Source of the DNA: Octopus vulgaris
Taxonomy: Eukaryota
Length of the DNA: 64,000 bases
Assembly: GCA_951406725.2 (NCBI GenBank)
Contig: OX597827.1
Span: 16,244,001 to 16,308,000, forward strand
Direction: 5' to 3'
The translations under genes were made by a program, and so were the position numbers. A model generated the notes under the pieces. The model ran no database searches. It was not told where the DNA came from and saw nothing but the letters and a program-made list of their open reading frames with translations. Of the stretch, positions 2,193-25,049 are shown piece after piece; within the stretch, counting starts at the first letter, position 1; every line of letters begins with the position of its first letter.

Positions 2193-2470
2193 AACTGGCC
2201 CCCTTCAAGTTGTTTACATTTCTGAAGATAACAGAAACCCTTTTTTTCCACCCCTAACCCTAACCCTAACCCCACATCGCCATATATATAAAAAAACAAA
2301 CACTTTCTTGAAACGTATCCAGTAGTTCCGGGACTTTTCGGTATAAGTACCGTTTCTAGCAGCCGTGTGTCCTGGTAACGGAATATCGCCATCTCCACCA
2401 CTATCACGCAAGTTTGACACAAGAGTGCGAGGCGACTTCGTTTGCTGGTCATTTCGCTTGAGTAAAAGTC

Positions 2471-3676
2471 ATGCACGTACTTAAAAATTGGGAATTATCT
2501 GAATGTATAGAAAACATCGACCAAGTTATTGATAAGGCACGCGGAAAAGAAATTTTGAATGAACACGAAGGAAAGTATGTGAAGTCTTTTAAACACGGCT
2601 CGTATGAGGAAAGCAGGAAGTTAATGGAAATGGTGAGTTGTTATGGCGATCAATTAGAAACTTTTTTGGACATTTTAAATGAAACAGGAAACGAACAGCT
2701 AGCAAGACGTATAAGTGAGAAAAAATACGAATTTGTTTTCATGATCAGAAGTAAAGACTACCTGAATGCCGAAGGAAGACATAATCACTGTTCGTTGTTA
2801 CCTCGCAGTATACCAACGCAATTTATTTACGAATCTAAAGTTGAAGATGTTATAGATAAACTAAAAGAGAAATATGAATGCCGCAAACCCATAGCCGATA
2901 GATTATATGTAGTTATTGTCTGTAAAAATCTTTCTGAAATATTTACTAAGGGTAATGAAGAAGCTGAAATGAGCTGTTTACTCATACATATGTATAATGT
3001 ATTCGGTGAAAGTAAAGAAATAAAAGTAATCGTCAACGTTAATTCAACGGTGTCAGAGGAAGATCGTTTTGTTTTTTTGCCATTCCCTTTGTGGAGAACT
3101 ATAGAGATGTATATCATTGAAAATAAAAAGGATGAGGAACTGAAAGACTTCCTTTGTTGTACGAATATTCCAGATACGTTAAAAAGAGATTCTAGGAGCA
3201 AAATAACTTTCACCGAGAGTTATATGTATGTTTTCACGTCGAACGCTTCCCCAAGAACTCTACAAAAGAAGTTGGAGTCTATCATAGAAGATGTTAAAAT
3301 AGTCGGTTTCAAAAGGAGTACAGTAGCTAATTGTGTAGAACTCGCTAAAGAAAATATGAAGAAGAAAGAAGCTAACATCAGGGGCGTTGAATTAATGTCC
3401 AAGATCAAACGAATCATAGTTTTTGTATATGGATTATGTGATGTTGAAAAAGTTACTGAATTGTTTGAATTGGAGAAAAGAATTGATATAGTAATTAACT
3501 TTAAAGAGGGAAATAAACCGAAAGTCTCTGAGTGGAAGAAGAAAGATAATGTGACCATTTATGCGATGGACGAAAAGCAGAAGGAAACATTCCTGAAATG
3601 TCCAGACAAAATGATCTCTGTGGATAACTTTCTTAGTGAATACTGTGCGAAGATCGGATATGAGAATGAGCAATAA
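2471..3676 (+). CDS. Intronless 401-aa protein: N-terminal CARD/death-fold-like domain (aa ~1-83) plus degenerate NACHT/STAND-like alpha/beta region (paralogue 1)
   Basis: Long complex ORF in a stop-rich background, with an in-frame TGA four codons upstream of the ATG. The helical pattern IDQVIDKA..EIL..E..YV....SYEESRKLMEMV..YG...ETFLDILNETGNEQLARRI fits a CARD. The reading frame is conserved with the diverged paralogue at 4546-5778. Confidence 0.85.
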   Translation: MHVLKNWELSECIENIDQVIDKARGKEILNEHEGKYVKSFKHGSYEESRKLMEMVSCYGDQLETFLDILNETGNEQLARRISEKKYEFVFMIRSKDYLNAEGRHNHCSLLPRSIPTQFIYESKVEDVIDKLKEKYECRKPIADRLYVVIVCKNLSEIFTKGNEEAEMSCLLIHMYNVFGESKEIKVIVNVNSTVSEEDRFVFLPFPLWRTIEMYIIENKKDEELKDFLCCTNIPDTLKRDSRSKITFTESYMYVFTSNASPRTLQKKLESIIEDVKIVGFKRSTVANCVELAKENMKKKEANIRGVELMSKIKRIIVFVYGLCDVEKVTELFELEKRIDIVINFKEGNKPKVSEWKKKDNVTIYAMDEKQKETFLKCPDKMISVDNFLSEYCAKIGYENEQ

Positions 3677-3772
3677 GGACTTGTAGGAATTTCATGAGTT
3701 ATATATCTTCAACAAGCGAGATATATTCTCCCTGACAAAACGCAGGATTAGCTTGTTCCCCAGTTCTTGCGC

Positions 3773-3886
3773 GCATCTTCTCCTTATTCTTATCTTTTGA
3801 TGCAATCTTCTCCTCATTCTTATCTTTTGATGCAATCTTCTCCTCATTCTTATCTTTTGATGCAATCTTCTCCTCATTCTTATCTT
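3773..3886 (+). repeat. 30-bp tandem repeat, ~4 copies
   Basis: gcaatcttctcctcattcttatcttttgat is repeated. Confidence 0.9.
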
Positions 3887-3955
3887 CCCTTTTATTTTGA
3901 CCTGCACACTGCCTCTTTATTCTTCTCTTCCTTTTGCACACGCACATTGCATACT

Positions 3956-4326
3956 ATTTTACTTGTTTCAGTCATTTGGTTGTGGCCATGCTGGAGCACC
4001 GCCTTTAGTCGAGCAAATCGACTCCAGGACTTATTCTTTGTAAGCCTAGTACTTATTCTATCGGTGACTTTGGCCGAACCGTTAAGTTACGGCGACGTAA
4101 ACACGACCAGCATCGGTGTTGGGGGGACAAACACAGACGCACACACATATATACATAAATACGACGGGCTTCTTTCAGTTTCCGTCTACCAAATCCACTC
4201 ACAAGGCTTTGGTCGGCCCGAGGCTAAAGTAGAAGACACTTGCCCGAAGTGCCACGTAGTGGGACTGAACCCGGAACCATGTGGTCGGTAAGCAAGCTAC
4301 TTACCACACAGCCACTCCTACGCCTA
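3956..4326 (-). mobile_element. SINE family C (tRNA-like head, CORE-like cttgggcaagt segment)
   Basis: The minus strand begins ggcgtaggagtggctgtgtggtaag. Homologous to copies at 20276, 22201 and 51640. Confidence 0.8.
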
Positions 4327-4545
4327 GGATGTTCATTTTTCTTTCTCGGGTTCTAGTTTCAAACTGTTTTGCACAACAGGACCCTTTCACTATATGTGTG
4401 AGTGCGTAAGGAGCCCCACGCCCAGCGATTGTTGTGGAAAGGACCACTCCCTGGGAAGGGACATAACTCTAGTCAGTTGCACGTTAATTGCTGTGTCGAG
4501 TGCGAGGCGACTTCGTTTGCTGGTCATTTCGCTTGAGTAGAAGTC

Positions 4546-5778
4546 ATGCACGTACTTAAAAATTGGGAATTATCTGAATGTATAGAAAACATCGACAAAG
4601 TTATTGATGAGGCACGCGGGAAAGAAATTTTGAATGAACACGAAAAAAATTATGTGAAGTCTTTTGAACACGGCTCGTATGAGGAAAGCAGGAAGTTAAT
4701 GGAAATGGTGAGTTGTTATGGCGATCAGTTAAAAACTTTTTTGGACATTTTAAATGAAACAGGAAACGAACAGCTAGCAAGACGTATAAGTGAGAAAAAA
4801 TACGAATTTGTTTTCATGATCAGAAGTAAAGACTACCTGAATGCCAAAGGAAGACATAATCACTGTTCGTTGTTACCTCGCAGTATACCAACGCAATTTA
4901 TTTACGAATCTAAAGTTAAAGATGTTATAAAGAAACTAAAAGAGAAATATGAATGCCGCAAACCCATAGCCGATAGATTTTATGTAGTCATCGTCTGTAA
5001 AAAATGGGAAGGAAAGTATATCTATTATACTGATGAAGATGAAATTTTAATTTACGATTTCATTGAATATATTTGTGATATCTTAGATAAAAGTAAAGAA
5101 ATAAAAATAATTGCCATCGTTGATGCCAATGGAAAAAATGAGCCAAAGAAAGAAAATGAATTTCTAGGTTCCGTGGCAGAAAGTACAGACATGTATATCA
5201 TTGAAAAACTAAAGGATGAGGAACTGAGAGACTTCATGTTTTGTGAGAATGTGATGGATTTGTTGAGAAAGATTGATGATAAGAAAATGTTTTTCTTCGA
5301 AAGTTTTGTGCATATTATCATGCATCAGAAGAGCAGCAGAAAGATAGAAAATCAGTTGCGTTCTAAAATAAAACAAATCAAAGTAGAAAGCACAAAAACG
5401 AACAAACTAGACAAGGTAGAAGATATTGTTAAGGAAATAGAATATTATTCGGAGTCTAAAATAAAAAGAATCATAATGTTCTTTGCTGACGGATTCTTGA
5501 ATCTTAAAGTAGCTCTCGATTTTATCAAAAAATTGTTTACACACTTCTCTAATTCGAAGAAAGAAATTCATGTACTGATACGGAAAGCGAAAGAATCTAC
5601 AATTCCAGAAAATATTTCACTAAAAGAGTCTGATTGGGATAAGAGAACACATATGAGCTTTTATGTGATGGGGGAAAAGGAGTTTGACATGATTTCATCC
5701 TCAAGGGAAAAACAGATCTCTGTTGATGACTTTCTAAGAGAATACTGTTCTAAGATTGGATATGCGAAAGAACAATAA
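4546..5778 (+). CDS. Intronless 410-aa protein: CARD/death-fold-like domain plus degenerate NACHT/STAND-like region (paralogue 2)
   Basis: Near-identical to paralogue 1 for aa 1-152. Afterwards only islands are shared (SKEIK, MYIIExxKDEELxDF, SKIKRII, ISVDxFLxEYCxKIGYxxEQ). The frame stays open despite heavy divergence. Confidence 0.85.
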   Translation: MHVLKNWELSECIENIDKVIDEARGKEILNEHEKNYVKSFEHGSYEESRKLMEMVSCYGDQLKTFLDILNETGNEQLARRISEKKYEFVFMIRSKDYLNAKGRHNHCSLLPRSIPTQFIYESKVKDVIKKLKEKYECRKPIADRFYVVIVCKKWEGKYIYYTDEDEILIYDFIEYICDILDKSKEIKIIAIVDANGKNEPKKENEFLGSVAESTDMYIIEKLKDEELRDFMFCENVMDLLRKIDDKKMFFFESFVHIIMHQKSSRKIENQLRSKIKQIKVESTKTNKLDKVEDIVKEIEYYSESKIKRIIMFFADGFLNLKVALDFIKKLFTHFSNSKKEIHVLIRKAKESTIPENISLKESDWDKRTHMSFYVMGEKEFDMISSSREKQISVDDFLREYCSKIGYAKEQ

Positions 5779-7020
5779 GGACTTTCAGGAATTTCACTAT
5801 TTATATATCCCGAACAAGCAAGTTATATTCTCTGCGACAAAATACAGTCATTAGCTTGTTCCCCAGTTTAAGCGTGCCTGAAGCATATTTGAACTGATAA
5901 CAACATTGCAATTATATATCTTCATTTCAGCTTGAATCATAAAAGTACAGACGTTCTTATCACTGTGAAATAACTTCCTGCTTCCAAGGCCTGTTTCTCC
6001 ATAATGATCTTAAAAATTTATGTTTTTAATGAAATGTAGTGATACATTTTAGATGATGTATATTACGATAATATTGGAGGCAGGTGTATTGAATATGAAA
6101 TTGTTTGAAGGAACATTCCACTCTTCATCGACTTTGTTAAATATGTTTTTGAATGAAATTTTCTAGATACGTTTTTTGAGGTCCCAGATTATGATTATCT
6201 TGATTTAAGTGAAGAAAAGGAAAAAGAAAAGAAAAAAAGACACACAAGTTTCGAGTAGTTCCATGTCATTGCAAGAAATAAAGAGGCACTCATAAGTTCC
6301 TGGTTTCTGTGAAACCTGTGGTCATTTTCCACTTTAATTTGCTCGGGAGAATTCTTTGAAAGAAATATTTTCGAACAAGTTTGAGTAGAATGCTAACACT
6401 TCATTTATTGAACACATATTTCTTTCATTCAAAGGGTTGAAGGAAAATCGAACACATTTTTCAAGTTTTATCACGAGAATCGTACTCTATACACTTAAAA
6501 ATGTATCTCTAAAAAACTTTGGTAAAAAAAAGTCAGCATTTTAAAGAAAGTTACAAGGAAAGAAAATGCTGATGATGGGGTAAAATTTTGTAGTTATACC
6601 AAAAACGTTTTGTTATTTTAAAGATTTTCATTTCATTCCATTCAAGTTTTGGGGGAGCATAAGGTTTGAAATTGTGACATGATATTGAAGCTTACAGTTA
6701 TATAGTTTACTTCAATTAAAGGGAATTATTTGGTATTTTTCAGTAGAGATTATTATAAAGTGCCTTTAATTTTGGTGGAAAACCGTTTCATTTTATTCAC
6801 ACTGTTGATGTGCTGGTTTCATGCATTAGCATTCAGCCTCCACAAACTGCTGAAATTTCTGAGATGCTTTGCTTAATGAAAAGAAACTAAGAAAAGAAAT
6901 TAATAAAACTTCAAAGTTTTGTTTTTTAAAGTTGTTTTTGTTTCTTTTGTTTGTTGTCTGCTTCTTTTCTCTTTGTTCTACAGATTTTAATAATTGAAAC
7001 AGATTTTCAAATGCTAAATT

Positions 7021-17069: not shown

Positions 17070-20000
17070 TCCCGTTATTCGTTGAGGGTTGGAATATCAT
17101 ATTTTTGTGTTCATATCTCCTGATGAAGAATTCTTCTTTATATTGCCGGAAATGTTCGTTGTCCAACCATAACTTAAAGAAGGGGAAGATTGCGAATTTT
17201 CCCTCTCCGCATGGTGCGAAGTGTCCACTGCAAGTGGTGTTTTCTGACAGAGGGGGTCTTTAATTTGTTGTTCGTGTACACGAATTCGGTCATATAGTCC
17301 CGTGCCGCTTTCGCTAATATAGTACTCTTTACGTGGTGGGCAAGTTGCACAGTAAATTAAGTTTTTCGTTTTGCAATTCACGTTTGCATTGATTTTGAAA
17401 ATCTCATTGCTTTTAAAGGAGATTTGTCCATTCCCTTCAATGTATTCACAAGTTCCGCATCGAGGGCCCCCGCATTTTTTAACTTGCATTGTTTCAATGT
17501 TAGATGCAAATTTCGCCTTGGTGAGTAGTGTTTTAAAGTTTTGTTCTCGGAGTCTGCTATATATTATTTGTGAGTCTTTTGTGAGTGCATTCATTTTGAG
17601 GGGTTCCTGGAGAATCGGGAGATATTGTATGGCGGCTTTCACAATTTTGAAGCTCCTTGGGTTGTGAGTGACCCCACAAAAAGGATGACTGTTTTGTCCT
17701 TTTTATTTTTTTGGCTTTTTTTTCTTAGTGTTGTCACTGGAATGTTCTGGACTTTAGTGATGGCTGTATTGATAAGGTTCACCGGATATTCTTGTCTTTT
17801 AAGGAACCATTTTAGTTCATGTAATCTTTTTTCCTGTACTGTGACCTGTGTTACTACGGTGCAGATGCGTCTTGCCATGTTAAAAGGAATGTTCCTTTTG
17901 GTATGTGAGGGGTGTGCTGATCGGACATTTAAGTATTGGTGTGTGTCTGTTGGTTTGTAAAATAGGTCTGTTTGGACATTTTCCCTTCTTTAATAAGGAT
18001 ATCCAGAAACGGTAGTTTCTTTCTACTACATTCCATGGTGAATTGCATTGCTTCATGAAACCTGTTTATGATGGAATGGAATATTTGCAGGTCTTCTTAG
18101 TTTCTATCACAGAAGATGAAGCAATCGTCTAGTTAACGTTTCCAGTTGTTATTAATGTAGGTGGCGAAGTCCTAACTGAACGTTTCCTGCATCTGGGAAT
18201 ATAGTTTTATCTCTAGGTATCCCATAACGAGTTTTGCATATGTTAGGGCTACTTCTGTACCCATGGCTGTTCCTTTTATTTGCAAATATAGTTCGTTATC
18301 AAAGAGGAAGTGGTTGTTCTCCAATGTTAATTAAATTGAGTCCTTCCAAAGTAAACTTTTTCGCGAATCTCTCTGAAATGGAATCTGGTTGTTTTGTAAT
18401 CCAGAAGTCAAGAGCTTCAATTCCTAAGTCGTGTGAGATGTTAGTATATAATCTTGTCACATCAAAACTAAGATTGTGTCTTGGTGTACTTTCTAGAGGA
18501 TATAGTTCAGGAATTCCATATCATCTCTGATGTAGCTTGGCACTTTTTTTTACATAGGGGTTCCATAGTGATGTCTAATTAGTTGTTTAGACGTTGTGTG
18601 CTTGAGGCTGGACCAGCAACAATTGGACGTATCTGTCGGTTTTGGTACCTCGACATATGATGTATTTTTACCGTTTATGTTGTTTTGGATTTCTTTGGAT
18701 TTGTGCGCTTTCGGTAATCCATAAACATTGCTGGTTTTAATTTCAAAGTTCGTTAAGTAATTGATTTCCTTTAATGTGAGGTAATTTTGGTGCTTTGTTG
18801 TCAAGTTTACCTGCTTTAATCATTGAATCTTCTCTTCGCATTTGTTGATTTTCCTGTAAAACCCCTCGTCATTCAACTGTTCTAGGATCATATCTTTGTA
18901 GTGGTTTCTGTCCATGACAACGATTGCTCCAACTTCAACAGCTTCTTTTACGATTATTGATGAGTCTTTTTGAAGCTTGTATAGTGTTAGAAGTTGGTCT
19001 GTAGGGATGTTGCATTTGTGCATCGTCTCTGCAATATTTGACTGCACCGATCGTCGTAGGCAGGTTATGTATTCTTCCAGGTGTCTGTCTTTATTTAGCT
19101 AGGGTTTGATGTTCTTTTTGTTCTTTTGAAGTTCTTTTGAAGTTCTAGTGACTCCTTGTGTTCTACACTCTGAAAAAATTCTCCTAGACGTAATTTGCGA
19201 CGAAAATCTTCTGTGTCTTTTATAAAACCGGTTTGATCTGCTTTCGGGGTGGTTGTGAACTCCAGTCCGTTTTCTAATAATTTGATTTCTTGTTGTGCTA
19301 ATTTCTTGGCCGATATGTTGATTATTTTTGGTGCTTGTAGTTTTTTTTTCGTTAAGGGTGATATTTTTTTTTCTTGTTTTCTCTCATATGGTGGAAGCAC
19401 CTTGTCCTAAAAAAGAATTCCCATTTGGGAGAAGGTTGTTTCTGTCGTGGTGAAATATTCTGTTCGCTGGCATTTCATGGTGATAATGTTCTGAGTGGTA
19501 GAATTTTGTTTGGTGGTTAATATGTGGGGGTTTGGTTCTTCTGTTGTTCCATTCGTTCTTCATATATCATTGATTTTGTCTATCGTACTTGCTCTTGGGG
19601 TTTTGACGGTAGTTGTATCTGGTTCCGGTGTTTGGTATTGGGTCTGTGTATAATTGTGTGCTTAGGATTCTCCGATTTCTGGTTGAAGTTTGCTTATTGC
19701 GTGAGAATTCTTCAGTTCTTGGGTTTTTGAATTTTCTCAAGTTTGAGAGCTTCTTATGGTTTTTTTTTCTGGGTTGTATTTGATCTTTTCCATAGTTCTT
19801 TTCATATTTTTGTAGCCATTTTCTTTGATTTTAATTCCTCTCTGGTTGTATCGGTCTTCCATAGGTCAAAGAGTTTTTCTCGCACGTTGCCACTGCTTCT
19901 TTCGTTTATTTATCCTGGAATGGTGTTGTCGCTCTTTTCAAATTTTTCTTTGAATTTTGGCACTCTTAGACGGAGAAGGGTGACTTCAGTCTCAAGTCTC

Positions 20001-20225
20001 TGGAGTGCTAGATTTAGTCTTATCTTGGTCTCTACATTTGTTTCCGATGTTATCTCTTTGATACGGAATTTTCTCGGGAGGACGACTTGTTCCTTACTTC
20101 GTCATATCTCGTATGTGTCTGCAAGGTTTTCACTTCGTAAAGCTTTCCAGTCTACCTGTTTTCTTTGACTTAGTAATCGGTTCCAAATATTTTTCATTTG
20201 TGTTCTTTTCTTGAGAGCTTCTTTT
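17070..20225 (-). mobile_element. Decayed Penelope-like retroelement (RT + GIY-YIG endonuclease; Cys-rich linker, Neptune-like)
   Basis: Frameshifted fragments include YGLPKAHK, KGTAMGT, WKR*LDDCF, KPTDTHQYL...HP and CGGPRCGTC...NLIYCATC...YISESG...RIRVH. It has many stops and is flanked by (TA)n. Confidence 0.9.
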
Positions 20226-23087: not shown

Positions 23088-23498
23088 CTGAACGCAGATT
23101 GAACAGAAATCGTTTTATTTCATTCTACACGTGTTTCGAAAGGCACAATTTACCAAAATCCGATTGAATAATGGGACCATATTGTGTCTTTCTCTTCAGG
23201 AAGAAATAGGTTAGCTAGGTTTTTTAATAGAATGGGCATGAGGCTGGACCAGCAACAATTGGACGTATCTGTCGGTTTTGATACCTCGACATATGATGCC
23301 TACGACGATCGGTGCAGTCAAATATTGCAGAGACGATGCACAAATGCAACATCCCTACAGACCAACTTCTAACACTATACAAGCTTCAAAAGGACTCATC
23401 AATAATCGTAAAAGAAGCTGTTGAAGTTGGAGCAATCGTTGTCATGGACAGAAACCACTTCAAAGATATGATCCTAGAACAGTTGAATGACGAGGGGT

Positions 23499-25049
23499 TT
23501 TAATAGAATGGGCATGAGTATAGTTTTTGATAATGAACTCACCAAGGCTAATTTCCTAGACGTTACACTTAACCTTAATAGCGACTCATACTGCCCTTAC
23601 CATAAGCCTTCCACTAATTTGAAGTATGTCAGTGTCTTCTCAAATCATGCCAAAACCGTAACAGACAATTTGGTTAAAAACATCTCTCTAAGATTGTCTG
23701 GTTTGTCCGCCAGTGCCGATATTTTTATGCAGAAAGCGGAATTTTATAACGCCGCACTATCCAAGGCCGGTTATAGGCAGAAGGTAATTTATATTGATCC
23801 GGCCCTTCCGATGCCATCATTCGGTCATCAGGATAGGGCCGTATATAATAACATAAACAATTTAAGTAAGGACGGGAGCGCGGCGGATGCCGGGGTAGTC
23901 GCTCCCGCATTTAATTTAGCGAACAAGGATAATTATCGGTCCGGGAGGTCTTACACTAACCCAAGACCCGTTATTCATCCGAGAATCACCCACCCGAATG
24001 CGAGAGCTGGCGTCCCGACCCATCACACTGATAGGAATAAGCATATATGGTTTGTAATCCCCTTTGGTAAGCAGATTAGAACTAACCTCCCCCTCATGTT
24101 TAGACAAGCCATCGCCAATAACTTCCCCAGAAATTCCAAATATTACTCCACGGTTAACTCGCATAAAGTTAGGATAGCTTTCTCCAACACTAAAAACCTC
24201 GCCCAGATAATCGCCTCCCATAATAATAGGCTACTTACTAAGACCCTATCACCTTTTTCCGGAGGCACAGCCTCTTCCGCTCCCGGTTTAATGCTCAGTA
24301 GGAATAATTATAGTAGTAATAATGATATGAGAGCCAGTACAGTGACACATAATCTCAGCTCCAGCCAGGGAGTACCCACTAGGGGTATAGTTATAAATAG
24401 GGGTGTTGTGGTTGACGGTAACAATGGGAGTAGGGTAGAGAGCCCCAATAGCATCCCCAGCATCATTTCCCGCAATAGCAGCACCACGGGCACTAGCAAT
24501 GACAGCACTCTGATAGATAGTGGAGAATCAGGGGTTATTCCTATAGTTAATAGTGACGTAGTGGAAAATAGAGTAGTAAGCGGCTGCAGGTCTCGGAACG
24601 AATATAGTGACAGGAACGCAGTTCTAATTTCAGAAACTAATCCTAGCAGAATAAGATTCACGTCGGCGAACTCCAAGATCAAAAACGCCGTCTACCAATG
24701 CAAGGTTTACACGGACTCAGATGTCTTCACTTATGTAGGGGCCTCATCCTCAAGATTGTCTTTGCGAGTCTCCAACCATTACGCAACTTTTCGGGACATG
24801 AACAAGCGCCAGACCACGGGACTCAGCAAGCTAATATGGCGACTGAAGGATACGAACTTAAGCTACAGGCTGGAATGGTCAATTTTGTCGGTGGCCCTCC
24901 CATTTGATAGGGGCAGAAGGCAGTGCAACCTTTGTGTCTCCGAACTCTTCCATATTTTGTTTGCCAGAGGCCGGATGGTAAACGGGCTTTTACAGTCGGC
25001 TTTTCGATGCCCCCATTGGCGGCGTTACACTTATCTGGCTTTTAAATAG
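23499..25049 (+). CDS. Penelope-like (Naiad-type) RT C-terminal/thumb + GIY-YIG endonuclease, 5'-truncated but uninterrupted
   Basis: Motifs NFLDVTLNL..SYCPYHKP...Y....SNH, IWFVIPFG...TNL, AVYQCKV...YVGA...R..NH..TF, LSKLIWRLK...W.IL and CNLCVSE...CPH. Confidence 0.85.
   Translation, partial: FNRMGMSIVFDNELTKANFLDVTLNLNSDSYCPYHKPSTNLKYVSVFSNHAKTVTDNLVKNISLRLSGLSASADIFMQKAEFYNAALSKAGYRQKVIYIDPALPMPSFGHQDRAVYNNINNLSKDGSAADAGVVAPAFNLANKDNYRSGRSYTNPRPVIHPRITHPNARAGVPTHHTDRNKHIWFVIPFGKQIRTNLPLMFRQAIANNFPRNSKYYSTVNSHKVRIAFSNTKNLAQIIASHNNRLLTKTLSPFSGGTASSAPGLMLSRNNYSSNNDMRASTVTHNLSSSQGVPTRGIVINRGVVVDGNNGSRVESPNSIPSIISRNSSTTGTSNDSTLIDSGESGVIPIVNSDVVENRVVSGCRSRNEYSDRNAVLISETNPSRIRFTSANSKIKNAVYQCKVYTDSDVFTYVGASSSRLSLRVSNHYATFRDMNKRQTTGLSKLIWRLKDTNLSYRLEWSILSVALPFDRGRRQCNLCVSELFHILFARGRMVNGLLQSAFRCPHWRRYTYLAFK

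Follow-up and report, generated by a model that had tools for sequence, protein, structure and literature searches.

Two tandem intronless CARD genes of Octopus vulgaris with a near-identical 5' block, probably maintained by gene conversion, and a rapidly changing back part

The DNA stretch analysed here, referred to as the window, comprises 64,000 nucleotides of Octopus vulgaris (contig OX597827.1, positions 16,244,001 to 16,308,000 of the forward strand) and lies on G000:C14, G000 being the 2.8-Gb source genome. Near its beginning it contains two genes, A and B, which a preliminary description made from the letters alone had presented as a tandem pair of intronless CARD-like genes. This is confirmed by the two open reading frames (ORFs) and by the Pfam search, as the CARD of each protein scores above the PF00619 cut-off of 23.9 bits. 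The CARD followed by two alpha/beta domains is an undescribed architecture. Both proteins are present in NCBI/UniRef, each as a single-member cluster, and literature searches found no publication on the locus; CARD genes of this type go unmentioned in the available portion of PMC4199593. The features of the locus are collected in Table 1.

Table 1. Features of the A/B locus (positions within the window)
Feature	Position	Strand	Remarks
Gene A	2471-3676	+	intronless single-exon open ORF, 401 aa
Homogenised 5' block, copy A	2423-2926	+	48 bp upstream and codons 1-152
CARD of gene A	2492-2716	+	aa 8-82; PF00619, 25.3 bits
Alpha/beta domain 2 of A	2726-3220	+	aa ~86-250; possibly dead caspase-like; breakpoint inside; boundaries from low-confidence model of B
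Alpha/beta domain 3 of A	3221-3673	+	aa ~251-401; generic flavodoxin/Rossmann-like sandwich, no family assigned
Variation hotspot of A	3226-3331	+	codons 252-287; nearly all non-synonymous, several alleles at single sites
Dispersed-repeat fragment	3709-3766	+	3' flank of A; at least 40 other genomic places, 86-95% identical; depth spike in DNA runs
30-bp tandem repeat	3775-3886	.	3.7 copies; downstream of A only
Very high-copy interspersed repeat	3957-4326	.	between A and B; depth 1e5-1e7, loose ends at 3957 and 4326 in 4/4 runs
Gene B	4546-5778	+	intronless single-exon open ORF, 410 aa
Homogenised 5' block, copy B	4498-5001	+	counterpart of 2423-2926
CARD of gene B	4567-4791	+	aa 8-82; PF00619, 27.0 bits
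Alpha/beta domain 2 of B	4801-5298	+	possibly caspase-like
Alpha/beta domain 3 of B	5299-5775	+	predicted alpha/beta domain
Fragment of the same dispersed repeat	5813-5918	+	longer and more diverged; same position behind B; 77-83% to five other copies

The two genes are nearly identical in their 5' block, where 487 of 504 nucleotides (17 differences) and 142 of 152 residues agree. Behind it, only 67 of the 219 aligned residues (31%; residues 153-382) are the same, with both frames remaining open, so that the near-identity from 48 bp upstream of the ATG and the abrupt drop after codon 152, as first described, both stand. The best breakpoint falls at codon 152, with 96.5% nucleotide identity to its left and 58.7% to its right, and its chi2 of 204 was reached in none of 2000 codon permutations (maximum 39). 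The homogenised tract is, however, not the signalling module that it had been taken for: it comprises the CARD and 70 residues further, ending inside the next domain.

Silent sites are homogenised as well. Of the codons that encode the same residue in both genes, 4 of 142 carry a synonymous difference within the block, compared with 22 of 81 downstream of it (P=1e-7), and selection alone is therefore insufficient as a cause. Comparison with P0003, an uncharacterised O. bimaculoides protein of 362 residues that lacks the first 53 and is nearest to the C-part of B, leads in the same direction. Over residues 54-152, 13 sites join A with B, 4 join A with P0003 and none joins B with P0003, whereas over residues 153-382 the corresponding numbers are 21, 23 and 79; the contrast of 13:0 with 21:79, drawn with one outgroup only, has P=2e-8. 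The paralogues are thus closer to each other than to the orthologue in the block and the reverse holds behind it. B and P0003 are 82% identical in the block and 55% behind. The discordant sites place the homogenisation of the block later than the split from O. bimaculoides, and indicate that the C-parts either separated earlier or, in A, evolved very fast. Both the picture of old paralogues with a homogenised N-terminal module and that of discordant N- and C-terminal relationships meeting at a sharp breakpoint are upheld by these data.

Eight of the 24 listed sequencing runs were compared, each consisting of coded contigs without tissue labels and carrying one of three organism labels (A, B and C); contig assemblies lose variants and give a depth that is only roughly informative and does not equal copy number. 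Mosaics of the two copies are found in several of them. In X18 and X19, a single contig covers 2423-2904 and reads B-like at 4 and A-like at 10 of 14 diagnostic sites, with one further letter that is absent from both window copies, and in X5 and X16 a contig starting in the upstream DNA of B has A-like letters at at least 13 and at least 10 sites, respectively. The block of X1 is B-like except at one site, and X11 has two alleles over 2492-2621 followed by one common contig. The depth of the block relative to the summed depth of the C-parts is 0.92 (X18), 0.94 (X12), 1.25 (X6) and 0.77 (X19); copies as different as those of the window, with one path dropped, should give 0.67-0.73. Mosaics and depth ratios support ongoing conversion, short of proof given the rough depth and the variants lost in assembly. 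Taking silent sites, outgroup and runs as a whole, we consider it highly probable that gene conversion homogenises the 5' block.

A second convergence of the two genes, at the C-terminus and in the 3' flank, had also been pointed out. The similarity is real (14 of 19 residues in the tail, residues 383-401, and 73 of 91 nucleotides in the flank), but a second recent tract is not what lies behind it. At synonymous sites the tail (pS 0.47, over only ~11 sites) has diverged about as much as the middle (0.485), a sign of purifying selection on the tail, and in the flank of A the stretch 3709-3766 belongs to a dispersed repeat. Taken as an older tract, the 3' flank gives P=0.058-0.076.

The rapid change expected of the C-part is evident both from the low identity behind the block and from variation in gene A, where 27 single-base differences at 24 sites were counted in four runs, 25 of the 27 being non-synonymous; the count omits a 9-nt deletion and two rows at 3315, which belong to an insertion/deletion pair that preserves the frame. 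Both real frames are open, whereas none of 2000 random 28% substitutions of the C-part of A keeps its frame open. Over codons 153-401, the ratio of non-synonymous to synonymous rates (dN/dS) of A against B comes to 0.77 (NG86), 0.67 (LWL85) or 1.29 (YN00); codons 153-250 give 1.2-1.3 and codons 251-401 give 0.43-0.65. A hotspot in gene A holds 15 of the 24 variable sites in 14% of the length of the C-part (nominal P=7e-8, for a window chosen after inspection of the data), and up to three alternative letters occur at one site. Five of the eight runs, some with organism label A and some with B, carry a multi-residue haplotype of codons 280-287, which two further label-A runs and the label-C run lack; site 3376 differs in all eight runs and is private to the window. 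A low-confidence model of B places the hotspot residues where the first two strands of domain 3 end and in the loops and helix starts that follow. Strand ends of alpha/beta domains form the binding face.

Domain 2 may derive from a caspase. In the alignment, Lys152 and Ala194 of B stand where caspases, whose catalytic pentapeptide is QACxG (excerpt of PMC10967218), have their catalytic His and Cys. Cys is absent from residues 170-228 of A and 178-232 of B, and the His/Cys dyad is lacking. Judged by their sequences, with neither the catalytic motif nor the PF00656 profile found in them, the two proteins are not caspases. In Atlas, domain 2 has caspase feature hits at 0.87-0.89 together with a structure row that spans residues 86-244 (template-modelling score, TM, 0.55 by target); its hhalign comparison with a caspase alignment scores 22.35, a value reached by 3/319 and 0/25 shuffles (empirical P ~0.01), and the model of B has a strand and then a hairpin at the place expected for a caspase. 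From these hints we lean slightly towards a caspase ancestry of domain 2, with loss of the catalytic residues.

The preliminary description had further suggested a diversified gene family. Each query, whether the N-part, either C-part or the block DNA, matched only two places in the genome, although distant paralogues may escape such searches, the CARD family search itself having missed the A/B pair. As far as these searches reach, the pair is not a large receptor family. Among 5.8 billion proteins, P0003 was the only outside homologue found, by searches that need shared 5-mers, and a restriction to Octopus is not proven.

We propose that A and B are two old tandem paralogues with a conversion-homogenised 5' block, whose products would act as non-catalytic CARD adaptors or decoys with a putative variable binding end; we see about equal chances for and against this proposal as a whole. 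Recurrent conversion would overwrite the first 504 bp of both genes and keep the two CARDs interchangeable, so that both could engage the same death-fold partner, for example a CARD-caspase. Candidate partners include the CARD-caspases among at least 81 PF00656 matches in the genome, most of them in tandem clusters. Upstream, conversion would halt where the DNA is no longer homologous, and downstream at codon 152, past which it would be excluded by divergence or selection. Pseudo-caspases such as cFLIP-L are regulators that dimerise with an active caspase. If domain 2 were a caspase fold that has degenerated and lost the His/Cys dyad, which is the weak step of the proposal, A and B could be regulators resembling cFLIP or CARD16. 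The diverged back ends would confer different specificities, as decoy or sensor, by binding different partners or pathogen-derived ligands, and the hotspot on domain 3 would be a putative binding surface under diversifying selection. An immune or cell-death role is an evenly balanced conjecture.

A number of observations weigh against this proposal. With regard to the variable end, the dN/dS of the C-part is only 0.67-1.29 and its maximum-likelihood estimate is saturated, the non-synonymous excess in A is not significant (P=0.089, with 19% synonymous expected), and the hotspot was delimited post hoc with three organism labels pooled. With regard to conversion, the depth ratio of 0.77 (one of four runs) does not discriminate, the assemblies lose variants and their depth is not copy number, and the single outside homologue is N-truncated, with no supported tree obtainable. 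No sister group or partner is picked out by the CARD tree of 36 rows, in which 18 of the 32 inner branches are open. As for the caspase ancestry, no PF00656 (Peptidase_C14) match was obtained in the A/B proteins at E up to 5 or 10, and the locus is not among the genome matches to that profile. The Atlas caspase scores lie below the bar set by Atlas itself, eight profile pairings were run, of which the hhalign match is one, and a reversed control gave P=0.018 with a different caspase alignment. The structure models are poor (predicted local distance difference test, pLDDT, 39 and 53), and fold searches barely probed domain 2.

The most serious alternative, which we still find rather unlikely, sees conversion as a neutral consequence of having two similar blocks 2075 bp from each other, with C-parts that drift under weak constraint and proteins that are lineage-specific adaptors, engaged neither in sensing nor in an arms race. 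A dN/dS near or below 1, the non-significant excess just mentioned, the presence of only two copies and a tract boundary that does not coincide with that of the CARD all speak for it. It is less easily reconciled with the concentration of variants, several of them at one site, in a small part of the C-part, with a multi-residue haplotype common to organism labels A and B, or with the contrast between block and back part in the identity of B to its O. bimaculoides homologue.

Another explanation would reverse the direction of the signal. The back part would be an effector or enzyme, TIR-like or of another flavodoxin-like kind, so that the CARD provides the input and the variable part is the output instead of a sensor. 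Profile comparison with 14 octopus TIR domains remained at chance (14/25 and 19/25 shuffles scored as high for the two domains), and among the three sequences, at ~31% identity, no invariant catalytic motif is conspicuous; we consider this explanation unlikely.

The homogenised block itself could be accounted for by one recent segmental duplication or a single unequal exchange that put the 5' 504 bp of one gene on its old paralogue, with no recurrent conversion. Such an event would leave one sharp tract, and a tract with the same ends is indeed seen in four DNA-type or untyped runs, but the A/B mosaics vary among runs, and over the doubled-depth block X18 and X19 have the letter absent from both window copies; we consider this very improbable. 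The suspicion that the shared block is an assembly chimera can be set aside almost entirely, for although none of the listed contigs spans the whole locus, 17 sites separate the two copies, contigs of independent runs cross both breakpoints (in X6, 2875-3738 and 4950-5926, reaching 52 nt inside the block), the mosaics differ among runs and the block depth approximates the sum of both C-parts in three of four runs.

Read as CARD proteins linked by recurrent conversion, A and B would resemble CASP1/CARD16 and TLR1/TLR6 in evolution and possibly cFLIP in function, as far as excerpts of the articles cited here go. The closest precedent is that of primate CASP1, CARD16 and CARD17, also tandem CARD genes, whose CARDs have been repeatedly overwritten by gene conversion, which is predicted to keep homotypic CARD binding intact (PMC11630849). 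In that cluster, an active protease homogenises short CARD-only inhibitors, whereas A and B are both full-length and intronless, without a catalytic dyad and with two diverged alpha/beta domains. Mammalian TLR1 and TLR6 come next, as tandem paralogues in which the converted region includes the signalling domain and extends beyond it while the rest has diverged; unlike A and B, they are receptors that sit in the membrane and bear LRR ectodomains, their tract is C-terminal, and they have no domain in common with the octopus pair (PMC2077338). cFLIP-L consists of DEDs and an inactive caspase domain (PMC8195603), and thus shares with A and B a death-fold domain followed by a possibly caspase-like one without catalytic residues; A and B differ from it in that their death-fold domain is a CARD and not DEDs, that a further alpha/beta domain follows at the C-terminus, and that their caspase homology is only weakly supported. 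Within the octopus genome, the CARD-caspases (caspase-2/9 type) clustered at G000:C26:33.70-33.81 Mb are also intronless and tandem with an N-terminal CARD, and some lack the catalytic Cys, but they match PF00656 strongly and the CARDs of A and B do not group with theirs. In several members of that cluster, the catalytic Cys or its neighbour is replaced by Tyr or Glu-shifted motifs.

Around the pair, inverted copies of one repeat (367/412 aligned positions) at 380-770 and 1801-2192 flank a tandem array immediately upstream of gene A, and three telomere-like hexamers at 2252-2272 lie ~150 bp upstream of its shared block. Contigs of runs guessed to be RNA reach ~200 nt upstream of the block of B (4298-4497), as far as the border of the intergenic repeat, and continue for ~0.9-1.1 kb downstream of B (5779-6865); the upstream DNA of A has no coverage among the listed pieces of these runs. 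Long frames at 17097-20168 (-) and 23487-25049 (+) resemble, by eye, retroelement remnants.

Other loci of the genome hold further CARD and caspase-like genes. At G000:C26:30.94-30.98 Mb (L109, L111-L114), five intronless ORFs of 305, 480, 510, 616 and 1840 aa, stop to stop, encode a CARD and then 1, 2, 2, 3 and 10 tandem units of ~174 aa, which have no Pfam or PDB match and show, by eye, a strand/helix spacing like that of domain 2. An intronless 267-aa CARD protein (L118:7247-8047; G000:C20:33.247 Mb) has one unit that aligns to these repeats at 15% identity with 14 invariant columns. Profile links between A/B and the C26 units were not significant, and it is doubtful that the A/B pair and this cluster form two branches of one octopus class of intracellular sensors or decoys, in which CARDs would be joined to dead-caspase-fold units serving as variable recognition modules; the A/B pair would stand in it with two units, a CARD locked by conversion and a hypervariable face for binding. 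Caspases form further large tandem clusters at G000:C5:54.1-54.5 Mb, C19:7.04-7.13 Mb and C28:6.29-6.38 Mb, and here, as at C26:33.70-33.81 Mb, the whole domain lies in one open frame; a 347-aa caspase-like ORF (L036:1496-2536; G000:C14:72.26 Mb) has a long, charged, coiled-coil-like insertion within the large subunit. CARD-bearing frames are also clustered in tandem at G000:C24:38.85-39.06 Mb (11 matches) and C14:75.54-75.63 Mb (6 matches).

Intracellular immunity and the control of cell death are poorly described in cephalopods; a squid study lists 15 CARD- or DED-bearing candidates without SwissProt matches (excerpt of PMC9389742). Region-restricted conversion as such is already known from vertebrates. 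The A/B pair offers a compact case of two intronless genes, in which conversion probably fixes the death-fold module while a defined patch at the other end varies between animals, and it makes both the CARD partner and any ligand bound by the variable patch directly testable. If domain 2 is indeed a dead caspase fold, the range of pseudo-caspases would extend from regulators acting by dimerisation to diversified recognition modules.

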